Assembly: GCA_041288095.1 (NCBI GenBank)
Contig: JBGGMJ010000212.1
Location: forward strand, 10,415 to 74,414
Direction of reading: 5' to 3'
DNA length: 64,000 bases
Source: Myxococcota bacterium
GTDB taxonomy: Bacteria > Myxococcota > XYA12-FULL-58-9 > JALHOP01
Under the pieces are notes generated by a model that made no database searches, was not told the origin of the DNA, and saw only the letters and a list, made by a program, of their open reading frames with translations. This document shows, piece after piece, positions 31,022 to 62,082 of the stretch. The translations under genes were made by a program, and so were the position numbers. Numbering within the stretch: position 1 is the stretch's first letter; the number at the start of each line of letters is the position of its first letter.

Positions 31022-31408
31022 ATGACCTCGGAAATCAACTTCACTGGCCGCAGCGCACCGCGTGGCATCGTCGCCCCCGGACCGCGCGTCCAGCTCGGCA
31101 TCAAGCAGGGCGATAGCTTTCAGATTCGCCCCGGCGAGCCGCTCTACGTGTTCGTCCCACTGACCGTTGGCACGAATTTCAGCTTTGCACAGATGGAGAA
31201 GAGCGCTTTCTCCATCGGTCCGTCGCAGATGCCGCCAGGAGTCGGCACCCCCCGGATCGCGGGCGAGTGGTTCCAGATTTCAATGACGCCCGGCGTCCGC
31301 GAAGGCACGCGCGAAGAAGTGCGCCTGCAGACGAAGGCCACCCCGGAGGCCGTCGCGCACACGGCGCTGACGTTCACGCTGGTCACCGGCGGTCGCCGCT
31401 TCTACTAG
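31022..31408 (+). CDS. hypothetical protein (beta-rich)
   Basis: RBS GGAG; ORF fills the gap; no signal peptide. Confidence 0.6.
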   Translation: MTSEINFTGRSAPRGIVAPGPRVQLGIKQGDSFQIRPGEPLYVFVPLTVGTNFSFAQMEKSAFSIGPSQMPPGVGTPRIAGEWFQISMTPGVREGTREEVRLQTKATPEAVAHTALTFTLVTGGRRFY

Positions 31409-31412
31409 AGCG

Positions 31413-31952
31413 TTAGACCCTGGGCGCGGCGAGCTGTAGGGCCGCGCCATTCGCCGGGCGACCATAACGCTGGGCGAAAGCGAGCGCGCGCGTGAGGTCT
31501 GGGGTGCGCAACGAGCCCTGCTGACCCGGCGCGTTCTCCGGACAACCGGCGTTGATCCAGCGCGCGATCTCGTCGATCTGATCATCCGGCAGGTACGGAC
31601 CACCCGACGGCATACGCGCGAACATGTCACCGTCGGCGCGCAGGTAGCGAATGATGTAGGTCTCTTCGGCGCGTCCGTTTCCGCGGAGGCTCTCGTCGAT
31701 GAGCGGGAAGCGCATGTCGCCGAGCTCGACCGCGGCGCTCAGCAGCTCGTCGCGGGTGCCCCACTTGAAGCTCGGGCCGTGCACTTCGAGGTGCGGTTCG
31801 CGCTGCTGGTCGGTGTGCCAGGCGGAGATGGCGCCATCGAGGATCTGCTTGACGCGCGCGAAGCCGGGGACCGGGCCGGGCGGCGTGGCTGTCGCGGGAG
31901 CCGCCTGCGCGACTTGGACGCCGGTGCTTTGAATGCGGTCGATAGGCTGCAT
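31413..31952 (-). CDS. cytochrome c-like (planctomycete-type) domain protein lacking CxxCH
   Basis: RMPSGGPYLPDDQIDEIARWINAGCP resembles the distal-Met/C-terminal helix motif; RBS GGAG before ATG 31952. Confidence 0.6.
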   Translation of the reverse strand: MQPIDRIQSTGVQVAQAAPATATPPGPVPGFARVKQILDGAISAWHTDQQREPHLEVHGPSFKWGTRDELLSAAVELGDMRFPLIDESLRGNGRAEETYIIRYLRADGDMFARMPSGGPYLPDDQIDEIARWINAGCPENAPGQQGSLRTPDLTRALAFAQRYGRPANGAALQLAAPRV

Positions 31953-32005
31953 GAACGGACTCCAGATGAAGGCCGAAAAACGGTAAAAATGTAGGGAGCG
32001 CCTAA

Positions 32006-32033
32006 TCATCGGCGCATGGGCCCGCCTGGTGCG
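32006..32033 (-). promoter_or_regulatory. sigma28-like promoter motif CGCAC-N15-GCCGATGA
   Basis: Intergenic, oriented toward gene 31413..31952. Confidence 0.5.
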
Positions 32034-32088
32034 CGGGAACCGCGATCCGTGCCACCTAGGTTACAGCTCCAGCGTCGGTCACAATTCC

Positions 32089-32116
32089 GCGACGAACCGG
32101 CAACGTTTGCCGATGA
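32089..32116 (+). promoter_or_regulatory. sigma28-like promoter motif GCGAC-N15-GCCGATGA
   Basis: Intergenic, upstream of the four-gene operon starting at 32209. Confidence 0.6.
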
Positions 32117-32208
32117 ATTGACCCGCTAGCGGCTTCCCCATCCAGTCGCCGGTCCTCACCCACAACTCAAGGCCACGCCGCATCAAGCGATGAGCTCGAG
32201 AGGTTCAC

Positions 32209-33585
32209 GTGTCTTCACAGCTTCAAGTCAATTTCGACAATCCAGATGTTCAGGCCCGTGTCACCGCCATGCGCGGCGAAGCCCTGGAATCCGGTGTCAC
32301 GGAAGGGGAATTTGACGAGGCGCTGGGTCGCGCCAATCAGGTCGACGGTGACCGCGACCTCTTCAGCGATACCGACCTCGGCCACCTCGAGGAGGCGCTT
32401 CAAAACACCCGCCAGGCCATCGCGCTCCGGCCACCGCGCAGGGGGTTCGCGCCCCAAGCGCCGCGCCAAAGCCTCACCGAGAAGCTCGAGGAGAACCTCG
32501 AGACCAACCGCCGCACCGCCGCCACCGCTCAGCAAGCCGGCAACGGCCTGTCGGTCGATCTCGTTCGCGGCGCGGCTCCCGCCGAGCCCGTTCGTACCCC
32601 GCCGCCGGCGGCTACCGAGCATCGCCTGCTCTCGGCCAACGGCGTCACCCGCACGACCTACTGGGGTCGCGTGTCGCCCGACGGCACCGTGTTCGCCATC
32701 GGCAGCAACCGCGGCGTCAGCGCCTTCGACATTCGCGAAGGTCAAAGCAACGCGGTGCACTTCCGCCAGGGCTCGTTCGACCCGACGTTCACCAACGACG
32801 CGCTCATCTTCCAGGGCGGCGGTACGTGGCGCGCCTCGATGGATTGGCTGCGCAACAACCCCCCGGAGGAAGTGAACGGCGAGGTCCCGGGGCACGTGCA
32901 GCGCATCGGCTCGCTCGCCCTCTATCAGGACGTCGCCGCCGACGGCGCCCGCGGCATCGCGCTCGACGGCCACATGTGGACCCCCGACTCTGGCCCCAGC
33001 AAGCGTGACCCGCGAATCACCGGCTCGAAGACCGCGAGCGTCCGCTTCCATCACCTGGACTCGTTGGCCGGCGCCACCGCGCCGCAAAACGTGCAGACGG
33101 TCTCGACGCCATTCCACAGCGGCTTCCAGCTTTCGAACGACGGTAGTCACGTCGTGTCGATGATCGCGAACCCCGACGCACCGACCCAGCAGGTCGGCTA
33201 CGCCATTTACCGCGTGTCGCGCCGCGATAGCGGAGAGGTCGATCTCACGCCGGTGCGCGCCGTCTCGGGCCTGCGCGGCGGCAAGCCGAAGATGGGCGGT
33301 GACTTCGTCGCCTTCCACCACGCCGTGACCGCCGAGGACTTCGCCTCGTACGGGTTCGCTTCCGCGGACGACCCGGCGTTCCAGGAGCTGCTGCGCCAGG
33401 GCACGGCCGACATCTACGTTTACAACATGCGGGACAACACCGTGCGCCGGGCCACCAACGCCGGCGCCGGCAACCTCGCCTGGTTCCCGTCGTTCAGCCA
33501 GGACGCGCAAGGCAACTACCGCGTCCACTACTTACAACTCAACGCCGACGGCTCGCGCCGCATCATGTCGGCCCCGGTGAACTAA
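32209..33585 (+). CDS. TolB-like beta-propeller protein (copy A1), no signal peptide
   Basis: VSPDGTVFAI, ADIYVYNMRDNTVRRATN, AWFPSFSQD (PD40-like); paralog of 34957..36348. Confidence 0.75.
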   Translation: MSSQLQVNFDNPDVQARVTAMRGEALESGVTEGEFDEALGRANQVDGDRDLFSDTDLGHLEEALQNTRQAIALRPPRRGFAPQAPRQSLTEKLEENLETNRRTAATAQQAGNGLSVDLVRGAAPAEPVRTPPPAATEHRLLSANGVTRTTYWGRVSPDGTVFAIGSNRGVSAFDIREGQSNAVHFRQGSFDPTFTNDALIFQGGGTWRASMDWLRNNPPEEVNGEVPGHVQRIGSLALYQDVAADGARGIALDGHMWTPDSGPSKRDPRITGSKTASVRFHHLDSLAGATAPQNVQTVSTPFHSGFQLSNDGSHVVSMIANPDAPTQQVGYAIYRVSRRDSGEVDLTPVRAVSGLRGGKPKMGGDFVAFHHAVTAEDFASYGFASADDPAFQELLRQGTADIYVYNMRDNTVRRATNAGAGNLAWFPSFSQDAQGNYRVHYLQLNADGSRRIMSAPVN

Positions 33586-34925
33586 TGACCACCATGCAAC
33601 CCGTAGGCAGCAACACCGTCGTCGCCCGCATCAACGAGGAGCCACCCGTCGGTGGCACCGGGCCGTACAACCCGAACCCGCCGTTCGCACCCGGCCAGAT
33701 CGCGAGCGCTCCGGCGCCGAAGTGGACGCCGATCATGCAGCGCCCCGCCGCGGAGCTCGGGCTGCAAGCACCGGCTCAGCGCAGCGTGCGCGATAGCGTA
33801 CAGACCATCGCCGCGGCCGCCGCGGGCCCGAGCGACGCTTTGCCGATCAACGTGCAGAGCAGCCGGCCCTACCCCGAGCTCGGCGTCAGCGTGCAGACGC
33901 TCGCCAGCGGTCTGAACTCGGTGTGGAGCATGGCGTACGCCCCGAACGGCGACGTCTACTTCACCGAGCGTCCGGGCCGCGTGCGCCTGATCCGCGACGG
34001 CGTCGTCCAGCCGGAGCCGGTGATGAGCCTCCAGGTCGGCGGTGGCGAAGGTGGCCTCTTGGGCATGGCCCTCGACCCGAACTTCGCGCAGAACCGCAAT
34101 GCTTACCTGTACTACACGGCTTCGGGAAACCGTGAGAACCGCGTGGTCCGCGTCACTCTCGGCGCCGATGGCCGCAGCGCTGGCCCCGAGACCGTGCTGG
34201 TGTCCGGCATTCCCGCCGCGGGCAACCACAACGGCGGTCGCATCGCCTTCGGTCCCGACGGCAAGCTCTACATCACCACTGGTGATGCGGGCCGCGCTCA
34301 GAATTCGCAGTCGCTTGGCTCGCTCGCCGGCAAGATCTTGCGCGTCAACAGCGATGGCACCGCCCCCAGCGACAACCCGTTCGTAGGCCGCGAAGGCGCC
34401 GACGCGCGCATCTGGAGCTACGGCCATCGCAATCCGCAGGGGCTCGGCTGGAACAGCCGTGGCGATCTGGTGGCGAGCGAGTTCGGATCGTCGGCGAACG
34501 ACGAGATCAATCTGATCCGGCCCGGCAGCAACTACGGCTGGCCGAACGCCGAAGGCGATAGCCACGCTCCGCCCTTCACGCCGCCGCTCGCGCACGCCGG
34601 CCGCGGTCCGAGCTGGGCGCCATCGGGCAGCACCTTTTTGACCAGCGACAAGATTCCGCAATGGCGGAACAACTATTTCATGTCGATGCTCGGCTTCAGC
34701 GCCGGCGCCGCTCGCGGCGTGCAGCGCTTCGAGATCGACGAGAACAACGTCGTGCGTCGCCAGCAGAACCTGTTCCGCGACGACTTCGGTCGCGTGCGCA
34801 GCGTGAGCCAGGGTCCCGACGGCTATCTCTACATGACGACAAGCAATCTCGACGGCCGTGGCCCACGGCTGCCGGAAGGCGATCGGATCCTCCGCATCGT
34901 CCCGCTCGAGCGCGCTTCGAACTAA
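33585..34925 (+). CDS. PQQ-dependent sugar dehydrogenase (glucose/sorbosone DH, GSDH) (copy B1), Pro-rich tail instead of signal peptide
   Basis: GEGGLLG, HNGGRIAFGPDGKLYITTGD, GHRNPQG, DEINLIRPGSNYGWP; TAATG overlap with the upstream gene. Confidence 0.92.
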   Translation: MTTMQPVGSNTVVARINEEPPVGGTGPYNPNPPFAPGQIASAPAPKWTPIMQRPAAELGLQAPAQRSVRDSVQTIAAAAAGPSDALPINVQSSRPYPELGVSVQTLASGLNSVWSMAYAPNGDVYFTERPGRVRLIRDGVVQPEPVMSLQVGGGEGGLLGMALDPNFAQNRNAYLYYTASGNRENRVVRVTLGADGRSAGPETVLVSGIPAAGNHNGGRIAFGPDGKLYITTGDAGRAQNSQSLGSLAGKILRVNSDGTAPSDNPFVGREGADARIWSYGHRNPQGLGWNSRGDLVASEFGSSANDEINLIRPGSNYGWPNAEGDSHAPPFTPPLAHAGRGPSWAPSGSTFLTSDKIPQWRNNYFMSMLGFSAGAARGVQRFEIDENNVVRRQQNLFRDDFGRVRSVSQGPDGYLYMTTSNLDGRGPRLPEGDRILRIVPLERASN

Positions 34926-34956
34926 TCCATTCAGTATAATCCACTAGGAGTGTCCC

Positions 34957-36348
34957 GTGTCCGCCATCGATCAATTGACCTTCGACAGCAGCGTAGTTCG
35001 TGACCGTGTTCGCGCCATGCGCAATGAAGCAGTAACCGCCGGCGTCGAGCCCGGTGAGTTCGACGAGGCCCTCGGCCGCGCCAACGTCATCGACGGCGAC
35101 CGCGACCGTTTCAGCGAGATCGACCTCGGTACGCTCGAGCAAGCCGTCGGCGATCGCCGCCGCGACATGTCGCTGCGCCCCGGCTTCGGCCCCGGCCTGT
35201 CGTTGCCGTCGACCGCGCAAATCATCGACCGCAACCTCGAGCAGACCCGCCGCGACGCGGCGCTCGCGACCACCCTCCCCGGCCTCACCGCCGACATCGT
35301 CGCGACGGCTCAGCCGGCGCAGCCGACCTTCGGCGCCGCGCAGGCAGGCACCGAGCTGCGTAACCTCGCGGCCAACGGCATCACCAGCACCTCGTACTGG
35401 GGTCGCGTGTCGCCGAACGGCGAGATGTTCGCCATCGGCAGCAACCGCGGCGTGTCGCTCGTCGACCTGCGCCCCGGCCAGAGCAACGCCGTCCACTTCC
35501 GTCAGGGCTCGTATGACCCGACGTTCGGCGACGACGCGCTCTACTTCCAAGGTGGCGGCACCTGGCGCGTCGGCATGGACTGGCTGCGCAACAACCCGCC
35601 CGAGAACGTGACCGGCGAAGTCCCCGGTGGCGTGCAGCGCGTCACTTCGCTCGCGCTCTACCAAGACGTCATGGGCAGCGACCGTAATGGCTACGCTCTC
35701 GACGGCCACCTCTGGGCCGGCGATGCGGCGCCCAGCACGCGTGACCCGCGCGTCAGTGGCTCGGCCACCGCGAGCGTCCGCGTGCACTCGTTGAACGGTC
35801 TCGCGACCGGCACCGATCGCAACACGCAGACCATCGCGACGCCGTTCCACAGCGGCTGGCAGATGTCGCACGACGGCCGGCACATGGTGTCGCAGATCGT
35901 CGATCCGGCGAACCCGAACACCCAGCGGGGCTACGCCATCTACGGTGTCAGCCGTAGCGACAGCGGCGCGGTCGAGCTGAGCCCGGTGCGTCTCGTGTCG
36001 GGTCTGCAAGGCGGCAAGCCGAAGATGGGCGGCGACTACCTCGCCTACCACCACGCGGTCACGGCGGCGGACTTCGCGCACTACGGGTTCGCTTCGGCCG
36101 AAGACCCGGCGTTCCAGGACCTCCTGCGCCGCGGCACCGCCGACATCTATCTGTACAACATCCGTGACAACACGGTCCGTCGCGCCACCAACGCCGGCCC
36201 GGGCAATCTCGCCTGGTTCCCGTCGTTCGCGACCAACGCCGACGGCACGCTGCGCGTGGTCTACCTGCAGCGCAACACCGACGGCAGCAACCGCGTGATG
36301 TCGATCAACGCGGACGCCCCGGCGCCAGCGTCGGCTCCGGCCCAGTAA
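34957..36348 (+). CDS. TolB-like beta-propeller protein (copy A2)
   Basis: Colinear high similarity to 32209..33585; RBS AGGAG. Confidence 0.75.
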   Translation: MSAIDQLTFDSSVVRDRVRAMRNEAVTAGVEPGEFDEALGRANVIDGDRDRFSEIDLGTLEQAVGDRRRDMSLRPGFGPGLSLPSTAQIIDRNLEQTRRDAALATTLPGLTADIVATAQPAQPTFGAAQAGTELRNLAANGITSTSYWGRVSPNGEMFAIGSNRGVSLVDLRPGQSNAVHFRQGSYDPTFGDDALYFQGGGTWRVGMDWLRNNPPENVTGEVPGGVQRVTSLALYQDVMGSDRNGYALDGHLWAGDAAPSTRDPRVSGSATASVRVHSLNGLATGTDRNTQTIATPFHSGWQMSHDGRHMVSQIVDPANPNTQRGYAIYGVSRSDSGAVELSPVRLVSGLQGGKPKMGGDYLAYHHAVTAADFAHYGFASAEDPAFQDLLRRGTADIYLYNIRDNTVRRATNAGPGNLAWFPSFATNADGTLRVVYLQRNTDGSNRVMSINADAPAPASAPAQ

Positions 36349-36349
36349 G

Positions 36350-38413
36350 ATGATGGTCGAGGCGGTCAACCGTCTCTTTGCTCGCCTCGGCCTTTCCAGT
36401 GCGCCGAGCGAACCGGCTTTGCCGCCGTTTCGTCCGGAAGATATTTGCACCTCCGATCCGGAGCGCCGCGTCCCACCGAGCTTCCTCGGTGAGGCGCGGC
36501 CTTCGGCCGTCGCCCACCATCACGGCATCGCACCGGCGCCACGCGTAGCGGCTCCGCTATCGCGTCCCACCACCTGGACGCCCCAGCAGTACGAGCGCTT
36601 CGCGGCACGGGTCCGCGAGTATCTCGCGCAAAACGACACCCTCCTGCCGCATCATGCCGCTTGGCACGAGGTGAACGGCCCCGGCGGCTCGCGCGGCCCC
36701 GGCTCGGGCACCGCTTTCTTGCAGATGCATCACGAGATGATCGTCGACATGGAGCGCTTCATCCGCGCCTCGGGGCGCGACCTCGATCTGGTGCCGCTGG
36801 TCGAATGGCGGCCGACGCAGGAGGTGCCGCCGCAGCTCGGTAACGTCGAACGCTACTCGACCACCCCGAACGTGCGCACGCCGTCGTGGCTCACGAGCGA
36901 GGGTGGCACGGAGCGCGCGCCGATCTTCGGTTACACCCGCCTCGCCGACTTCAAGAGCCTCGACGAGCTCGGTCGCGCCTTTGGCAGCGGCCCGCCGGAC
37001 AATCTCGGCTACCACGGCGCCGGCCACGCTGGAGTCGGCGGCGTCATGTGGAGTCGCCGCGCGCCCGTCGATCCGGTCTTCTGGCTGTGGCACCGCCACA
37101 TCGACAACATCGTCGAGACCTGGCTTGCGACCGAAAACGGCCGCGCCTGGGCGGCGACCGACGAAGGCCGCGCCTGGCGTGAGGCGACTGGCCACCATCA
37201 CCACGCGGCGCCGGGCGACAAGGTTCACGAGCGCACCGAAGCGCTGCTGCGTATGCGCGCCGCCAACGCCGCCGACTACGAGAGCTACATGTCGGGCTCG
37301 TCCTTCGACCCGCCCGTGAACGCCTGGCCCGCCGACGCGCTGCCGATCAACGTCCAGAGCTCCGAGCGCATGAACCATCTCGGCGTCACGGTGCAGACGC
37401 TCGCAAGCGATCTGCGCGTGCCGTGGGGCATGGCCTTCGCGCCGAACGGCGACGTCTACTTCACCGAGCGCGGTGGCCGCGTTCGCGTCATCCGCGACGG
37501 CGTCGTGCAGTCACAGCCCGTCCTCACCATCCCGGTCGGGGGCGGCGAAGGTGGCCTGCTCGGCATCGCGCTCGATCCGGATTTCGCGCGCAACAACCTC
37601 GCCTATCTTTACTACACGACACCCGGCTCGACCGAGAACCGCGTCGTGCGCGTGCCGCTCGCGGGCCCCAACGTCGGCCAGCAGTCGGTCATCGTCTCGG
37701 GCATCCCGGCCTCCGGCATCCATAACGGCGGACGCATCGCCTTCGGCCCCGACGGCAAGCTCTACATCACCACCGGCGACGCGGCGCGCTCGAACAGCGC
37801 CCAGGACCTGCGCTCGCTCGGCGGCAAGATCTTGCGCGTCAACAGAGACGGCTCCGCTCCCGCGGACAACCCCTTCGTGGGTCGTGCCGATGCCGACGCG
37901 CGCATCTGGACCTACGGCCACCGCAACCCGCAGGGTCTATCCTGGAACAGCCGTGGCGAGCTGATCGCCAGCGAGCTCGGCGGCGCCTCGCAGGACGAGA
38001 TCAATCTCATTCGTCCCGGCAGCAACTATGGCTGGCCCGAGGCCCAGGGCGACTCGCACCGCCCGCCGTTCACGGCACCGCTGGCTCATGCCGGCCGCAA
38101 CCCGAGCTGGGCCCCATCGGGCGGCACGTTCCTCACCAGCGGCAAGATCCCGCAGTGGCAGGACCGCTATTTCATGGCGATGCTCGGCTTTGGCCCTGGC
38201 GCCGCGCGCGGCCTGCGGATGTTCGAGCTCGACGAGAACAACCAGGTGCGCAACCAGACCGTGTTGTTCCGTGACGTCTACGGCCGCGTTCGCAACGTCA
38301 TGCAGGGCCCCGACGGTTATCTCTACGTAACCACCAGCAACCATGATGGTCGCGGCGAGCCCGGACGCGGCGATGATCAGATCCTGCGCATCGTCCCGAG
38401 CACGGCGCGCTGA
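36350..38413 (+). CDS. tyrosinase (type-3 copper) domain + PQQ-dependent sugar dehydrogenase fusion (copy B2)
   Basis: CuA-like HHAAWH...FLQMHHEM; CuB YHGAGH...GGVM...APVDPVFWLWHRHID; then a GSDH domain paralogous to 33585..34925. Confidence 0.88.
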   Translation: MMVEAVNRLFARLGLSSAPSEPALPPFRPEDICTSDPERRVPPSFLGEARPSAVAHHHGIAPAPRVAAPLSRPTTWTPQQYERFAARVREYLAQNDTLLPHHAAWHEVNGPGGSRGPGSGTAFLQMHHEMIVDMERFIRASGRDLDLVPLVEWRPTQEVPPQLGNVERYSTTPNVRTPSWLTSEGGTERAPIFGYTRLADFKSLDELGRAFGSGPPDNLGYHGAGHAGVGGVMWSRRAPVDPVFWLWHRHIDNIVETWLATENGRAWAATDEGRAWREATGHHHHAAPGDKVHERTEALLRMRAANAADYESYMSGSSFDPPVNAWPADALPINVQSSERMNHLGVTVQTLASDLRVPWGMAFAPNGDVYFTERGGRVRVIRDGVVQSQPVLTIPVGGGEGGLLGIALDPDFARNNLAYLYYTTPGSTENRVVRVPLAGPNVGQQSVIVSGIPASGIHNGGRIAFGPDGKLYITTGDAARSNSAQDLRSLGGKILRVNRDGSAPADNPFVGRADADARIWTYGHRNPQGLSWNSRGELIASELGGASQDEINLIRPGSNYGWPEAQGDSHRPPFTAPLAHAGRNPSWAPSGGTFLTSGKIPQWQDRYFMAMLGFGPGAARGLRMFELDENNQVRNQTVLFRDVYGRVRNVMQGPDGYLYVTTSNHDGRGEPGRGDDQILRIVPSTAR

Positions 38414-38416
38414 CCG

Positions 38417-39286
38417 TCAACGAAGCCGCTCGAGCTTCTCCTTGAACGCGACGCAGGGATCCGGTCGCGGGACCGGCGCCGTCGTCCAGACGACGTCGTA
38501 GCCCGCGGTCATCGCGCCATCCTCGACGAAGCCAATCGAGAGGACCTGGTCCGGCGACACGCCCGGCGCATGAGCGGCATGGAACGCCGCACCGTGAGCG
38601 CGGCTCGCATGCTCGCCACCGGCGATGAGCACGGCGCCGTCGCGCGTCGCCGAGGCCAACATGCGCTGCGCGAGATGCGCATCGCGGAGCTCTTGCGCCG
38701 AGGCCATGACCTTCACGGACGCGTCGTCGGCGTAGCCACAGTGGCCCTTGCGCACGTTGTCCTCGATCACGGACCGCCCCGCCGCGTCGAGCGAGGCGGT
38801 GAAGCCGAAGGCAGCGGGCGTCTCGCCCTTCTTGCTCGCGGCCATCAACGCCTCGCGACCGATGTTGCCGCCAACGATGGGCAGACGACCGGTCATGGCG
38901 ATGCGCACCAGCGGCTCGTACATCGCGTAGCTAGGCCAGCCTCGCTGCTCCCAACCGACCGCTTCACCGAAGGTCGCGGGGTCGCGCTGCTGGAGGATGA
39001 CGGGCGTCTGATCGACCTCGAGCATCTCGAAGACGAGCGCCGGTCTGCGGCCCGCCGCGACCAGGGCCTGCAAGACCTCGGCCTGCAAGGCGTGGTGCCG
39101 GGGGTTGTCGTGCAGCTCGCCGAGAAAGACGAAGCGCGCCTGGCGCGCTGCCGCGAACACGGACTCCGGCCCCGTGGCTGCTCCGCGCATCACGATGCTC
39201 TCGCCCGGCGGCGCGGCGGCGACCGAAGCTTTCCGCTGTGGCGTACACGCCCCGAGCAGCACCACCAAGAGCGCAAGAGCTCGCAT
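38417..39286 (-). CDS. ChaN family (heme-uptake-like) lipoprotein
   Basis: LLGAC lipobox; FLGELHDNPRHH, FEML, GHCG, AQELRDAHLA, LIAGGEH. Confidence 0.85.
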   Translation of the reverse strand: MRALALLVVLLGACTPQRKASVAAAPPGESIVMRGAATGPESVFAAARQARFVFLGELHDNPRHHALQAEVLQALVAAGRRPALVFEMLEVDQTPVILQQRDPATFGEAVGWEQRGWPSYAMYEPLVRIAMTGRLPIVGGNIGREALMAASKKGETPAAFGFTASLDAAGRSVIEDNVRKGHCGYADDASVKVMASAQELRDAHLAQRMLASATRDGAVLIAGGEHASRAHGAAFHAAHAPGVSPDQVLSIGFVEDGAMTAGYDVVWTTAPVPRPDPCVAFKEKLERLR

Positions 39287-39810
39287 CAGAATGACCACTC
39301 GAGACCAATGCCCGAAACGAACGTGTTCATCCCTCCGACGGCGCCGGCGATACGCAGGGTCGCAGCGACGTGTTTGCTCAGGGGCAAGCCGACGAGCGCG
39401 TGTCCCGCTCCGTTCAAGCCACGCCGGGCACCGTCGACATTCTGAGCGACCGTGTAGCCGACACCGAGCCCGCCCTCGAGGATGACCGGACCGTGCCAAC
39501 GATAAACCACCAAGGCGTCGGCGAGACCGCCTCGCCCACCCTTCGACGTGTTGATCATGGCGCCGTCGAGCCGCAGACCAAAGCGGTGCGTGCGTCCCCA
39601 CATGATGCCGGTGCCGATGCCGAACGCGACCCCCGAAAATCCCGAGCTGCAGTCATTTTCGACCAGGCGGCCATCCACCGTGAGCACGACGGTCTGGCAG
39701 GGAATCGTCGTCCCGATGACGCCGTAACCTGCCCCGACGCCGAAGACGAAATGCGCCTGAGGGCCGCGGCCATCGATGTGTCCGGCCACCGCCAAGCCAG
39801 CGATGAGCAA
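39286..39810 (-). CDS. putative outer-membrane beta-barrel protein
   Basis: Gly-rich amphipathic strands; C-terminal GLEWSF; TGATG coupling to the ChaN gene; start uncertain. Confidence 0.6.
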   Translation of the reverse strand: MLIAGLAVAGHIDGRGPQAHFVFGVGAGYGVIGTTIPCQTVVLTVDGRLVENDCSSGFSGVAFGIGTGIMWGRTHRFGLRLDGAMINTSKGGRGGLADALVVYRWHGPVILEGGLGVGYTVAQNVDGARRGLNGAGHALVGLPLSKHVAATLRIAGAVGGMNTFVSGIGLEWSF

Positions 39811-44894: not shown

Positions 44895-46034
44895 ATGGCC
44901 ATGGACCGAGCTCCCCGACTCATCGCCCTTACGGCTCTCGCAACAGTAACGCTCTTGTCAGCGCATCTCGACGCGGCCGCTCAGCGCACCATCAAGACGA
45001 AAGACGGCCCCATCCACGCCACCCGCGTTGCCGGAGGGCTCGCCCACCCATGGGGCATCGCTTTCCTTCCGGACGGTCGGATGCTGGTCACCGAACGCCC
45101 GGGTCGCCTACGCCTCATCGATGGAAACGGCGCCGTGAGTCCGCCTTTGCGCGGCACTCCCAACGTGGTGGTCACGGATCAGGGCGGCCTGCTCGACGTC
45201 GCGCTGAGCCCGTCCTTCAAAGCGGACCGCTTCGTGTACCTGACGTATGCCGAGCCCGGCGAAGGCGGCGCTTCGACCGCGGTGGCCCGCGGCACTCTGT
45301 CCGCCAAAGAAAACTCCATCGAGGGTCTCGCGGTCATCTTCCGTCAGACACCTAAGGTCGAGGGCCCGAACCATTGGGGCTCGCGCATGGTCTTCGCGAA
45401 GGACGGCAAGCTCTTCGTCACCTTGGGTGAGCGCTTCAAGTTCGACCCCGCGCAAGACACACGGACGACCTTCGGCGCCATCGTGCGCATCGCCGCGGAC
45501 GGTAGCGCTCCCATAGACAACCCCTTCTTCGGTAAGAAGGACACACGCCCGGAGATCTGGAGCCACGGGCATCGCAACGTCCAAGGGGCGGCGATTCACC
45601 CCACGACCGGCGTCCTTTGGGCCCACGAGTTCGGTCCGCGCGGTGGTGACGAGCTCAACATCATCAAAGCCGGCAAGAACTACGGCTGGCCACTCGTCAG
45701 TTGGGGAAAACACTATGACCTCCGCGACATCCCCGATCCGCCGACCCGCCCCGACCTCGAACCGCCCGTGAAGTACTGGGACCCGGTCATCTCGCCATCC
45801 GGGATGACCTTCTACACCGGCGATCTCTTTCCGAAATGGCGCGGCAATCTCCTCATTGGCGGCTTGTCCGCCGAAGCGGTGGTGCGCCTCGGCCTCGACG
45901 GCGACAAGGTCGTCGCCGAGGAGCGCATCGGCATGGGCGAGCGCGTCAGAGCGGTCGCGCAGGCTCCGGACGGGTCCATCGTCGTCCTCACCGACGATGA
46001 CGACGACGGCGCAGTCATTCGTCTCACCCCGTAG
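44895..46034 (+). CDS. PQQ-dependent aldose sugar dehydrogenase (YliI/Asd-like) with Sec signal peptide
   Basis: HPWGIAFLPDG, QGGLLDV, HWGSR, GHRNVQG, GPRGGDELN, NYGWP. Confidence 0.93.
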   Translation: MAMDRAPRLIALTALATVTLLSAHLDAAAQRTIKTKDGPIHATRVAGGLAHPWGIAFLPDGRMLVTERPGRLRLIDGNGAVSPPLRGTPNVVVTDQGGLLDVALSPSFKADRFVYLTYAEPGEGGASTAVARGTLSAKENSIEGLAVIFRQTPKVEGPNHWGSRMVFAKDGKLFVTLGERFKFDPAQDTRTTFGAIVRIAADGSAPIDNPFFGKKDTRPEIWSHGHRNVQGAAIHPTTGVLWAHEFGPRGGDELNIIKAGKNYGWPLVSWGKHYDLRDIPDPPTRPDLEPPVKYWDPVISPSGMTFYTGDLFPKWRGNLLIGGLSAEAVVRLGLDGDKVVAEERIGMGERVRAVAQAPDGSIVVLTDDDDDGAVIRLTP

Positions 46035-59946: not shown

Positions 59947-62082
59947 ATGCGCTTGCGTCCCCCCGTTATCGCGTTCGTCCTTTTGCTCGCCTCGTGCCGC
60001 AGCACGTTGTCGACCTGGCCGGAGTACGGCGGCCCGCTGGGCGTCGAGCCGGGTGGCCACTTCTTCATGGCCCACCACTACTCGGAGGCCGCCCAGATCA
60101 CGAAGGCGAACGTCGCGCGCTTGCAGCAGGTCGCCTCGTTCGAGTGGACGCAGAAGGTCCCCGACGCCTTCAACGGCAAGGAGTACGCGACCTCGGTGAC
60201 GCCGATTCACGTGATCATCGACGGCGAAGACTTCCTCTACGGCTGTAGCGCCTTCAATCAGGTCTGGAAGCTCCGGGGCAGCAAGTCGCCGGCGGGGAAC
60301 CCGCTCCAGGAGCTCGCGACGTTCGACCCGGAGCTTCCCGCGAAGACCGACGGCGAGAACTACAAGTGTCGCGGCGTGAGCTACTGGTTGGACGCGGAGA
60401 AAGCTCCCCAAGCCGCGTGCCGTCACAAGATCTACTCGGCGACGATCGACGGCCGTCTCTTTGCTCTCGACGCCAAGACGCTCCGCGCCTGCGACGAATT
60501 CGGCACGGCCGGCGTGGTCGATCTCAAGCAAGACCTGCGCGCCGAGGCCGAGCCCGAAGCACTCGAGTACTACGTCGCGACCGCGCCGCTGGTATATCCG
60601 CTCGAGCAGTCAGCGATGCTGGTCATCGGAGGTGGTGTCCGCGATAGCTACAAGCTCGACGTCGCGAGCGGCGCGGTCCGTGGCTACGACGCGACGACAG
60701 GCAAGCGCCTGTGGGTCTGGGACGCAGCCGGAGACGGCTTCACCCAAGGCACGCCCAATGCTTGGACCGCGCTCGCGATGGACCCGATGCTTGGCCACGT
60801 CTATCTACCGACCGGCAACGCCTCTCCGGACTATCACAGCGCCTCGCGACGCGCCGGCGCCGACGACTACGCGAGCAGCATCGTCGCGCTCGACATGCGA
60901 TCGATCGACTTCGGGGCCAAAGACGCACGGCCACGCGTCGCCTGGCACAAGAAGCTCGTGTATCGCGACGTCTGGGATTTCGACATCCCCGCGCAGCCCA
61001 TCCTCACGACGATCCGCGGCATCCCCGCCCTCGTCCAGGGCACGAAGATGGGGTTCGTCTTCTTCGTCGACCGGCGGACCGGCGAATGGCTGCCGGGCTA
61101 CGAGCCCAGCATGGTCGACGTGACGGCGCGCTCGCACAAGAACGGCGACGCGACCGCACCCAGCATCGCGGCTCCCGACGAGCAGGTGGCGCGCGCCCAG
61201 CCCTTCCCTCCCGCGCCGTGGCGGTTGCATCCCGACGCCGCGTCCATCGACGACGTCACCTGGGATCACCCGTCGTGTCAGGCGCAGAAGAAGGACTTCT
61301 ATTACAACGGCGTCTTCACGCCCGCTACGGCGGACAAGGGCATGAAAGGCAGCCTGCATTTCCCCGGTGCCGGTGGCGGCCTCGAATGGGGTGGGATGAG
61401 CTTCGACCCGGTGCGACGCCTGCTTTACGTCAATCAGTCGCATTGGTCGTTCTACGCCCGGCTGCTCGCGCGCGAAGACTACGAGAGAGAGTCGGTGGAC
61501 GAGCGCGGCAAAGGGAAGTCGGGCTACCGGCCGATGCGCGGGTCCGCGTGGGGCACCTACCGCTCCCTCTTCATCGTGAAGGGCAACGAGCGCATCAAGA
61601 CGCTGCTGTTCTGCACCAAGCCGCCATGGGGGAGCCTCATTGCCGTCGATATCGACACCGGCAAGGTGCATTGGGGCAAGAAGCCCAACGGCGGGCTCGA
61701 GCCCTTCGGCAACTTCCGGCGACACGCGAGCCTCATGTCGAACGCGCCCATCGAGTCGTTGCTCGAGGGTGACGACTTTCTCGCGGCCAAGCTCGCGGAC
61801 CCCACCTACGAGCCGGGCACCACCAACATCGGTGGCTCGGTGGCGACGGCGACCGGTTTGTTGTTCATCGGCGCGACGGGGGACGGACTGTTCCGCGTCA
61901 TCGACAGCGACACCGGTCGCGTGCTCAAGGAGCTCGAGCTGCCCGACGGCTTGTCCGCGATGGCGAACCCGATCACCTACATCGGCGTCGACGGCAAACA
62001 ATACGTCGTCGTCGCGGCTGGCGGAAACCCTTACGTGCCGGGTCGGCGCGGCAAGAAGGTCGTCGCCTTCGCGTTGCCGTAG
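59947..62082 (+). CDS. PQQ-dependent glucose/quinate dehydrogenase-family quinoprotein (soluble/lipoprotein form)
   Basis: QITKANVARL, CRGVSYW, DGRLFALDA, GTPNAW, YLPTGNASPD, DVWDFD, KPPWG, ANPITY; LLASC lipobox. Confidence 0.9.
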   Translation: MRLRPPVIAFVLLLASCRSTLSTWPEYGGPLGVEPGGHFFMAHHYSEAAQITKANVARLQQVASFEWTQKVPDAFNGKEYATSVTPIHVIIDGEDFLYGCSAFNQVWKLRGSKSPAGNPLQELATFDPELPAKTDGENYKCRGVSYWLDAEKAPQAACRHKIYSATIDGRLFALDAKTLRACDEFGTAGVVDLKQDLRAEAEPEALEYYVATAPLVYPLEQSAMLVIGGGVRDSYKLDVASGAVRGYDATTGKRLWVWDAAGDGFTQGTPNAWTALAMDPMLGHVYLPTGNASPDYHSASRRAGADDYASSIVALDMRSIDFGAKDARPRVAWHKKLVYRDVWDFDIPAQPILTTIRGIPALVQGTKMGFVFFVDRRTGEWLPGYEPSMVDVTARSHKNGDATAPSIAAPDEQVARAQPFPPAPWRLHPDAASIDDVTWDHPSCQAQKKDFYYNGVFTPATADKGMKGSLHFPGAGGGLEWGGMSFDPVRRLLYVNQSHWSFYARLLAREDYERESVDERGKGKSGYRPMRGSAWGTYRSLFIVKGNERIKTLLFCTKPPWGSLIAVDIDTGKVHWGKKPNGGLEPFGNFRRHASLMSNAPIESLLEGDDFLAAKLADPTYEPGTTNIGGSVATATGLLFIGATGDGLFRVIDSDTGRVLKELELPDGLSAMANPITYIGVDGKQYVVVAAGGNPYVPGRRGKKVVAFALP

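Follow-up and report, generated by a model that had tools for sequence, protein, structure and literature searches.

Tyrosinase-like copper oxidases and soluble six-bladed dehydrogenases of the pyrroloquinoline quinone (PQQ) type are both enzyme classes that have been studied well, and the pairing of the two in one polypeptide is uncharacterised. In this study, we analysed such a pairing, the open reading frame (ORF) TyrGSDH2, in a 64-kb stretch of DNA from a Myxococcota bacterium (64,000 nucleotides, hereafter the window), in which a compact copper module stands in front of a GSDH propeller. Little is known of the electron acceptors that soluble six-bladed PQQ-type dehydrogenases use physiologically. 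The described enzymes Pyrobaculum PaeASD (3A9G/3A9H), the Thermus enzyme (2ISM), Escherichia coli YliI/Asd (2G8S) and Acinetobacter sGDH (1C9U) share with TyrGSDH2 the full six-bladed GSDH domain with its HxGGR catalytic-His, GHRNxQG and NYGWP motifs. TyrGSDH2 differs from them in the copper domain in front, in an N-terminus that is not signal-peptide-like and in a score under the TIGR03606 cut-off; its cofactor binding is predicted.

The bacterial tyrosinases and o-aminophenol oxidases, represented by Streptomyces MelC2 (1WX2), the Priestia megaterium enzyme (3NM8) and SmNspF (9T62), are the best sequence and fold matches of the copper module among solved structures. They share with it the six-His binuclear motif, the helical bundle and a CuB site of the form H-x3-H...H in which H3-4 is Phe and H3+4 is Asp, and HGAGH is common to SmNspF and TyrGSDH2. 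The differences lie in the CuA site, which reads H-x3-H-x20-H with a Gly facing H54 of the Streptomyces tyrosinase (the canonical second CuA His), in the shorter copper core (approximately 205 aa) and in the fusion to a propeller. In addition, Pfam scans of the neighbouring and window ORFs found no MelC1-type caddie gene nearby, and the gene directly upstream is the 463-aa PD40-like X2.

Three further systems are comparable in part. CcPDH of Coprinopsis cinerea, composed of an AA8 cytochrome b, an AA12 PQQ domain and CBM1, is a natural fusion of a six-bladed PQQ dehydrogenase with an electron-taking redox domain (PMC4332668, PMC6881789). It has a haem b partner, uses outer-sphere electron transfer and is secreted, whereas the partner in TyrGSDH2 is a putative O2-activating dicopper site with no known relay role. 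Streptomyces MelD2, an intracellular polyphenol oxidase proposed to handle phenolics within the cell (PMC2758597), is likewise a non-secreted type-3 copper oxidase; it differs in being canonical and MelC2-like, with a helper protein and, in the available text, no dehydrogenase partner. Compared with tyrosinases, hemocyanin has its second CuA His at a shifted position (PMC3658974), and the profile of the TyrGSDH2 copper family matches Limulus hemocyanin II with both copper sites spanned (E 1.2e-14). TyrGSDH2 is bacterial and much smaller, and no match to Pfam hemocyanin (PF00372) was reported for it.

The fusion protein and its two modules

Judged from its sequence, TyrGSDH2 is a genuine, selectively maintained two-domain protein in a small clade of uncultured Myxococcota. 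Its frame is open throughout and is the only ORF in its interval. Homologous proteins from the cluster-representative and homologue searches are given P numbers here, and contig loci are called L001 to L004; the proteins of L002, L003 and L004 are P0002, P0004 and P0006, respectively, and L004 is a second locus in the same genome as L002. The same fusion was found in independent assemblies as P0001, L001 and L002/P0002, which were 99%, 87% and 84% identical to it, respectively, and the junction is common to four distinct full-length sequences on separate contigs. An earlier note on this DNA, made by a model from the letters alone, had named misassembly at the junction as a danger to its reading, and the recurrence of the fusion answers this concern as far as sequence can. 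Among the orthologues of the window, L001 and L002 (synonymous divergence, dS, 0.75-2.2, and 0.75-1.9 for the two modules), the ratio of nonsynonymous to synonymous divergence (dN/dS) was 0.06-0.10 for the copper module, 0.06-0.11 for residues 281-326 and 0.065-0.10 for the GSDH half. Residues 1-74 were looser than the domains, with a dN/dS of 0.26-0.35. These ratios point to strong purifying selection on both modules.

The earlier note had described one 687-aa ORF with a copper domain and a GSDH propeller, which the ORF listing and Pfam confirm (Table 1). In the N-terminal region, residues 16-61 and 64-69 had a predicted local distance difference test score (pLDDT) below 50 in the AlphaFold2 model, and AVNRLF and EDICTSDPERRVP are kept across relatives. 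That note did not recognise the architecture as characterised, and the literature searched, for example with tyrosinase plus sorbosone dehydrogenase (titles and the starts of abstracts), likewise contained no description of a tyrosinase-GSDH fusion. The fusion is visible, unnamed, in public protein sets through precomputed Pfam labels.

The N-terminal module bears the hallmarks of type-3 (coupled binuclear) copper in its sequence and in its structural model, with an unusual H-x3-H...H CuA site. Pfam Tyrosinase (PF00264) matched residues 174-259 with 39.4 bits against a cut-off of 22.6; the match spans profile positions 121-212 of 214, which is the CuB half only. Residues 1-330 were compared with 1.84 billion cluster representatives, of which 262 matched at E <= 1e-3, 118 at E <= 1e-10 and 10 at E <= 1e-30. 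The family alignment holds the query and 111 of 155 proteins, those with a match spanning from query residue 105 or earlier to residue 252 or later; the other 44 were partial and were left out. PF00264 was found in 87 of these 112 members (E <= 1e-4). In the alignment, H102, H106, H127, H222, H226 and H248 are conserved in 110, 111, 112, 110, 112 and 110 of the 112 rows, respectively, and a separate MAFFT alignment gave the same picture. The four His motifs quoted in the earlier note are all present in residues 96-130 and 216-255, and these six are the family-conserved His among them. The type-3 copper assignment made there is also supported, with each His in at least 110 of 112 rows and the six placed on helices 98-109, 119-141, 220-229 and 242-259 of the AlphaFold2 model; the Foldseek likeness is weak, as described below.

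The published rule for CuB is H1(3)-H2(n)-H3, with a Phe four residues ahead of H3 and an Asp four residues behind it (PMC3658974). The spacing H222-x3-H226-x21-H248 agrees with this rule; F244 is kept in 110 of 112 rows, and position 252 is Asp in 76 rows and Glu in 16 more. At CuA, F123 is kept in 100 rows, and because the family keeps H106, four residues past H102, both copper sites read H-x3-H-x20/21-H. Arthropod hemocyanin CuA also reads H-x3-H. The alpha/gamma subclass has a CuA of the form H1(n)-H2(8)-H3, and the second His is shifted only in the cytosolic beta-subclass, as far as the available text goes (PMC3658974). In TyrGSDH2, the residue nine before H127 is G118 (Gly in 73 of 112 rows) instead of the His of the alpha/gamma motif. 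A survey of PF00264 gave distances of 7-9 or 16-24 residues between the first and second CuA His (PMC11803259), and the distance of 3 in TyrGSDH2 is outside these ranges.

The residue after the first CuB His, G223, bears on the likely substrate. Across the family, this position is Gly in 46, Ala in 26, Asn in 17, Ser in 8 and Asp in 4 of the 112 rows. Studies have shown that Asn at this "first activity controller" position goes with tyrosine hydroxylation, and Gly or Ala with short polyphenol oxidases (PMC11803259). TyrGSDH2 thus has Gly in place of the monophenolase-type Asn, a marker that correlates with activity and is not proof of it, and G223 would therefore favour a diphenol or an aminophenol over tyrosine as substrate.

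The AlphaFold2 model of residues 1-330, made from the 112-row alignment, had a pLDDT of 82.3 and a predicted template modelling score (pTM) of 0.77, with most of the copper module above 90 pLDDT. The Foldseek matches listed from the Protein Data Bank (PDB) were all type-3 copper proteins, with SmNspF (9t62) first, followed by the Streptomyces and Priestia tyrosinases and by hemocyanins. The family profile matched Streptomyces tyrosinases at E 2.9e-19 and 9.2e-18 with both copper sites spanned, and the NCBIfam BagH/FevF match had 24 bits, far under its cut-off. The earlier note had taken the GHHHH stretch for the linker between the domains. It is instead a loop inside the copper module, followed by the confidently modelled helices 291-305 and 307-315, and the real connector lies at approximately residues 321-328. 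The loop is kept in seven of the eight clade members, and His is rare at these positions in the wider family (8-27 of 112 rows). Where the copper core ends, the GRAW motif is duplicated, and clade relatives keep this duplication.

The C-terminal module is, by its motifs, an intact GSDH-type propeller with the catalytic His and the Arg-Asn motif, and cofactor binding is predicted. The Pfam GSDH family (PF07995) matched residues 356-668 over profile positions 2-329 of 332 (299 bits, E 4.6e-89); the completeness of the propeller claimed in the earlier note is supported by this span and by the catalytic-site motifs. The PDB matches of this half were 3A9G/3A9H (E 3.2e-76), 2ISM (3.9e-68), 3DAS (3.8e-57), 2G8S (3e-43) and 1C9U (4.3e-34), and the 3A9G match spans residues 23-358 of the 362-aa query. 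By sequence comparison, its closest solved relatives are PQQ aldose/glucose dehydrogenases. The motifs HNGGR (H458-R462), GHRNPQG (G523-G529) and NYGWP (N559-P563) are present, and their residues are common to at least 79 of the 80-84 GSDH rows in the full-length alignment A3 (141 rows) and occur also in the paralog GSDH1, with the exception of N459 (10 of 84). Studies have assigned catalysis to the His and binding of the PQQ quinone oxygens to the Arg-Asn pair (PMC6881789). In the alignments, H458 and R525-N526 are also found in 3A9G, 2ISM and 3DAS, and by motif they would correspond to His144 and Arg228/Asn229 of sGDH. The fusion scored 154.4 bits with NCBIfam TIGR03606, under the cut-off of 434.55. 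Because the canonical third GSDH of the window (GSDH3) also fails it with 120.9 bits, we regard this model as narrow.

The unfused paralog GSDH1 is similar to the fusion from P327-A-D-A-L-P-I-N-V to residue 683, with 260 of 359 residues identical (72%, E 7e-176), and nothing similar was found upstream of P327. The earlier note had placed the GSDH onset where similarity to the paralog begins, and the alignment agrees. Its proposal that the tyrosinase domain was gained or lost at a clean junction holds for the clean junction; the loss that can be demonstrated in relatives is that of the propeller core and not of the tyrosinase domain. GSDH1 is also more than a plain domain-less copy, with its own unrelated Pro-rich N-terminal extension of approximately 85 aa (window 33585-33840). 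The extension of the GSDH1 orthologues carries a conserved GPY(N/L)P and APAPKW..MQRP in five of six distinct sequences, and the sixth, P0176, is without it. It is possible that the conserved Tyr of GPY(N/L)P, exposed beside a tyrosinase-like enzyme, is a candidate protein substrate. The propeller half of the fusion (GSDH2) is 88-91% alike among orthologues vs 70-73% to GSDH1. The possibility that GSDH2 owes its full propeller to gene conversion from GSDH1 was considered and rejected; the identity between GSDH2 and GSDH1 is even, with 47/64 in blade 1, 182/248 in the core and 30/47 in the last blade.

The four-gene operon and the relatives of the fusion

In the window, the genes X1, GSDH1, X2 and TyrGSDH2 follow one another on the plus strand with the fusion gene last. 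The TAA stop of X1 and the ATG of GSDH1 share one base in TAATG, and the start codon of TyrGSDH2 lies 1 nt past the stop of X2. By this layout, the four genes are a tightly packed, translationally coupled operon, and they are conserved as a block, which recurs in L001, L002 and L003. The earlier note had named the paralog but not the operon. X1 and X2 are 64% identical. They fall into two separate clades, and since all four genomes contribute orthologues to each, their duplication predates these species. The detectable X homologues number 14, all on contigs of this one small clade and several of them on fusion-bearing contigs. An Atlas structure search run on X2 gave PD40/TolB clusters at a template modelling (TM) score of approximately 0.5, which is a lead only, and the X-family profile gave a marginal WD40 match in the PDB (E 0.0045). 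Resting on the Atlas leads, X may be a PD40/TolB-like propeller.

Five distinct relatives (P0003, P0004, P0005, P0006 and P0008) have lost the propeller core, including HNGGR and GHRNPQG, through in-frame deletion and keep all six His of the copper site. These collapsed forms retain residues 329-399 plus 588-687 or 626-687, that is, blade 1 and the last blade, and the remnants consistently resemble GSDH2 at least as much as GSDH1. In L003, the collapsed form is the fourth gene of the cassette and stands beside an intact GSDH1. In the copper-domain tree, the root and long branches (P0008, P0009) of which are uncertain, the full-length forms are short-branched and next to the outgroup, and the collapsed forms are nested and long-branched (support 81/83, not starred). 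Many independent deletions of the propeller are not required, since the collapsed forms group together and share a left edge at approximately residue 399/400. The right edges differ (approximately 588 vs 626-629), and one early deletion followed by further erosion would fit as well.

Other arrangements of the copper module were also found. At L004 (2184-11512), the collapsed P0006 is directly downstream of an outer-membrane factor (OEP), a CzcB-type adaptor, a CusA/CzcA-type resistance-nodulation-division (RND) pump and a P1B-type ATPase, and this ATPase scored best with Zn/Cd/Pb models, not copper. P0009 (726 aa) has no GSDH and joins the copper module to an X-like protein that is 33% identical to X2 over approximately 450 aa (E 9e-61). 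More widely, the compact copper domain behaves as a mobile module. It follows Cys-rich repeats in some proteins and in others is joined to fucose-lectin propellers, FG-GAP repeats, CBM6 or proprotein-convertase P-domains; examples of its architectures are P0007 (759 aa), P0031/P0097, P0032/P0057, P0034 and P0011/P0071. Among Met-starting copper-family proteins, approximately 29 of 146 have a hydrophobic N-terminus.

Table 1. Positions of the features discussed; numbers refer to the window unless a locus is named.
Feature	Position	Strand	Remarks
TyrGSDH2 fusion ORF	36350..38413 (stop included)	+	687 aa, ATG start
N-terminal region, residues 1-74	36350..36571	+	AlphaFold2 model: conserved short helix (residues 2-12), then Pro-rich region modelled disordered
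Compact type-3-copper (tyrosinase-like) module, residues 75-320	36572..37309	+	Includes C-terminal helical hairpin 291-315
Putative CuA	36653..36730	+	H102 and H106 (one helix, i/i+4), H127 (next helix); F123 at H3-4
Putative CuB	37013..37105	+	H222, H226, H248; F244 (H3-4), D252 (H3+4); G223 after first CuB His
27-nt tandem repeat	37119..37178	+	2.2 copies, 78% matches; encodes duplicated 9-residue ...GRAW... motif, end of copper core
His-rich loop G281-HHHH285	37190..37204	+	pLDDT dips to 67 in block 281-290
Interdomain connector, residues 321-328 (~8 residues)	37310..37333	+	pLDDT <50 from residue 323; paralog similarity from residue 327
Six-bladed GSDH propeller (GSDH2), residues 329-687	37334..38410	+	Complete
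X1	32209..33585	+	458 aa, first operon gene; no Pfam/NCBIfam family; PD40/TolB-like lead
GSDH1, unfused paralog	33585..34925	+	446 aa; GSDH 295 bits
X2	34957..36348	+	463 aa, directly upstream of fusion gene; no Pfam/NCBIfam family
GSDH1-orthologue extensions	L001 7227-7480; L002 7241-7490; L003 7243-7490
orf198	31413..32009	-	198 aa, divergent, no family match; adjoins cassette in L001-L003, 71-78% identity
ChaN/Tiki-superfamily (PF04187) gene	38417..39601	-	Directly downstream, opposite strand; kept in L001-L003
Third GSDH (GSDH3), canonical	44895..46034		450 bits; signal-peptide-like N-terminus
8-bladed PQQ-type dehydrogenase	59947..62082		Lipobox-like N-terminus

Proposed function and rival explanations

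The earlier note had read the fusion as a natural quinone redox-cycling enzyme. We believe it plausible, with a probability of roughly 0.35, that the copper module and the GSDH propellers of the operon are redox-coupled through a quinone. The copper module would use O2 to oxidise a catechol or o-aminophenol, free or protein-bound, to an o-quinone or quinone-imine, and this quinone would serve as the acceptor that re-oxidises the reduced cofactor of GSDH2 in cis and of GSDH1 in trans. Overall, the cycle would amount to sugar + 1/2 O2 -> lactone + H2O, with no H2O2 formed and the phenolic kept reduced. In a compartment with no evident cytochrome partner, a dehydrogenase insensitive to O2 would thereby gain an outlet linked to oxygen. 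The role of X is probably to dock or present the substrate or partner. If GSDH1 and GSDH2 are redundant in this cycle, this would explain how sister lineages could lose the GSDH2 core with the copper module retained. In these lineages, the copper domain clearly works without a propeller of its own, and GSDH1 is possibly used in trans.

Studies have shown that reduced PQQ glucose dehydrogenase (PQQ-GDH) is not oxidised by O2 and that mediators regenerate the enzyme (PMC11206384). Because this enzyme needs an acceptor other than O2 and a dicopper oxidase makes o-quinones from O2, quinone coupling is the simplest joint chemistry for the two halves. The X, copper and GSDH modules are genetically tied in several arrangements and therefore most likely act together. 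We counted in favour of coupling the connector of approximately eight residues, the packing of the operon, the X-copper fusion P0009 and the full GSDH1 that remains in the L003 operon, and we took the intracellular MelD2 as a precedent.

Several results weigh against coupling. The copper domain needs no GSDH of its own, and its coupling to one is not obligatory, because the five relatives without the GSDH2 core keep the copper site with its six His. At L004, no X or GSDH gene was found within +-10 kb. In the wider copper family, GSDH is a rare partner (5 of 112 members), found alongside FG-GAP (2), fucose lectin (2), CBM6 (1), P-domain (1) and others, a range that fits the logic of a catalytic head plus a binding module. 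The structural evidence has limits as well. The Foldseek likeness is weak (best E 0.011, TM 0.35-0.44, 0 of 130 at E <= 0.001, with a query that included approximately 80 disordered residues), and the placement of the domains relative to each other is not confidently predicted, the Atlas whole-protein model having a pTM of 0.53.

Cofactor supply is a further difficulty for coupling. None of the four cassette proteins has a signal-peptide-like N-terminus by the maximum 12-residue Kyte-Doolittle hydrophobicity of the first 70 residues, a crude measure and not SignalP. The four values ranged from -0.03 to 0.74; TyrGSDH2 had 0.74, vs 2.27 and 2.57 for the GSDH3 and the 8-bladed PQQ dehydrogenase of the window, respectively, and the cassette ORFs cannot extend upstream. 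A hydrophobic N-terminal segment was present in 98 of the 105 nearest other GSDHs vs 0 of 6 GSDH1 orthologues. In the available text of a preprint that surveyed six-bladed PQQ enzymes, all sequences carried Sec signals and were exported (bioRxiv 10.64898/2026.07.10.737718). PQQ loading is therefore uncertain, since the cassette proteins are without an export signal and the surveyed enzymes are exported, and no pqq biosynthesis genes were found among the 36 large window ORFs scanned.

The sequence evidence does not separate the coupled-redox model from one in which the propeller binds or scaffolds. The copper module would there be the sole essential catalyst, acting on a small phenolic or a protein Tyr, the GSDH propeller would bind a sugar or other ligand or be structural, and X would be a second binding or presenting module. 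This explanation is possible, if doubtful. It accounts for the five relatives that lost the propeller core with the six His kept, for the X-copper fusion P0009 without GSDH and for the other propeller and lectin modules on family members, and the in-frame retention of only blade 1 and the last blade suggests a structural role of the remnant. It does not lead one to expect that the cofactor pocket is preserved, whereas GSDH2 keeps the catalytic His, the RN pair and NYGWP after 28% divergence from GSDH1, the GSDH half evolves as slowly as the copper module, and all three cassette loci seen hold a second intact GSDH. A cytoplasmic biosynthetic or tailoring unit for a pigment or specialised metabolite, with a GriF/NspF-like copper module, GSDHs acting on a sugar-like intermediate and no redox cycle, is unlikely. 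The four proteins without a signal-peptide-like N-terminus would suit it, as would the o-aminophenol oxidase SmNspF as top structural match with the shared HGAGH CuB motif, the BagH/FevF match and the Gly after the first CuB His, the meaning of which is taken from PMC11803259. However, the NspF and BagH matches are weak, no polyketide synthase, nonribosomal peptide synthetase, aminotransferase or other biosynthetic genes were found among the neighbours, and the flanking genes common to L001-L003 look like ordinary synteny.

It is improbable that the operon encodes a self-contained sugar oxidase that forms water and works by means of a protein-bound quinone. In such an oxidase, the dicopper module would convert a conserved Tyr, placed in a flexible segment of a partner, by hydroxylation and oxidation to peptidyl-3,4-dihydroxyphenylalanine (DOPA) or dopaquinone. 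The candidate Tyr would be that of GPY(N/L)P in the GSDH1 extension or the invariant Y310 before the GSDH2 propeller. PQQH2 is also an o-diphenol, and either the tethered quinone or PQQH2 itself might shuttle electrons from the propeller site to the Cu2O2 centre. Such a cytoplasmic quinoprotein system would make or regenerate its own quinone with no need of periplasmic cytochromes, and would belong to a bacterial type-3 copper branch with a CuA like that of arthropod hemocyanins. More improbable still is a role of the copper module in the handling of metal (copper) or in protection from oxidation linked to metal stress, with GSDH as an ancestral passenger. The collapsed form directly downstream of the OEP-CzcB-CusA/CzcA genes and the P1B-type ATPase at L004, together with the clade-conserved GHHHH loop, speaks for it; however, such a context was seen in only one of four loci, the ATPase fits Zn/Cd/Pb-type models best and not copper, and nothing comparable flanks the cassette in the window. 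Finally, as far as sequence evidence goes, it is hardly credible that the fusion is an artefact, be it misassembly at the junction, read-through from one gene into another or the decay of a pseudogene, for the junction recurs in four distinct full-length sequences on separate contigs, the frame is open, and dN/dS is low before and after the junction as well as in residues 281-326, even if the collapsed propellers of the relatives reveal a deletion-prone region.

If the two halves are redox-coupled through a quinone as we propose, TyrGSDH2 would be the natural counterpart of an enzyme pair that sensor chemists have combined, and an oxygen-linked sugar oxidase that yields water, not peroxide. 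In its own right, the copper domain makes up a fairly large uncharacterised family of 262 representatives, and the unusual CuA of this family bears on the relation between the tyrosinase and arthropod-hemocyanin lineages. The conserved operon ties the fusion to a PD40-like family without known function. In addition, the natural series of full fusion, collapsed-propeller fusion and X-copper fusion provides ready experimental controls.

Neighbouring genes and host

The conservation of the neighbours in L001-L003 is regarded as ordinary synteny because everything else for more than 10 kb is also conserved, and a functional meaning of the M13 peptidase, orf198 and ChaN-like genes was considered and dropped. 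Because its versions in L001 and L002 have 293 aa, the listed ChaN-like ORF probably begins too early. A defence-system reading was dropped too, PADLOC having given 0 hits for the six cassette and neighbour proteins. A promoter and terminator scan of 31300-38700, which is uninformative for a genome of 68% GC, gave one promoter-like site within X1 and, on the wrong strand, one terminator-like site; shuffled sequences gave at least as many. Scans of the 64-kb window were negative for tRNA and tmRNA genes, and no Rfam family reached its gathering score there.

The metagenome-assembled genome (MAG) of L002 and L004 is labelled "uncultured Bdellovibrionales", and L001 and L003 are labelled Myxococcota. 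Despite the differing labels, the loci are syntenic, with protein identities of 76-91% for the cassette genes and 70-88% for the neighbours, and one of the two taxonomic labels is probably off. The window itself has a G+C content of 65-69% throughout, and the 36 large ORFs scanned include genes typical of Myxococcota, such as Ser/Thr kinases, an FHA-sigma54 activator and FG-GAP giants. Because GSDH3 has a signal-peptide-like N-terminus and the 8-bladed PQQ-type dehydrogenase a lipobox-like one, the host probably uses PQQ enzymes outside the cytoplasm.

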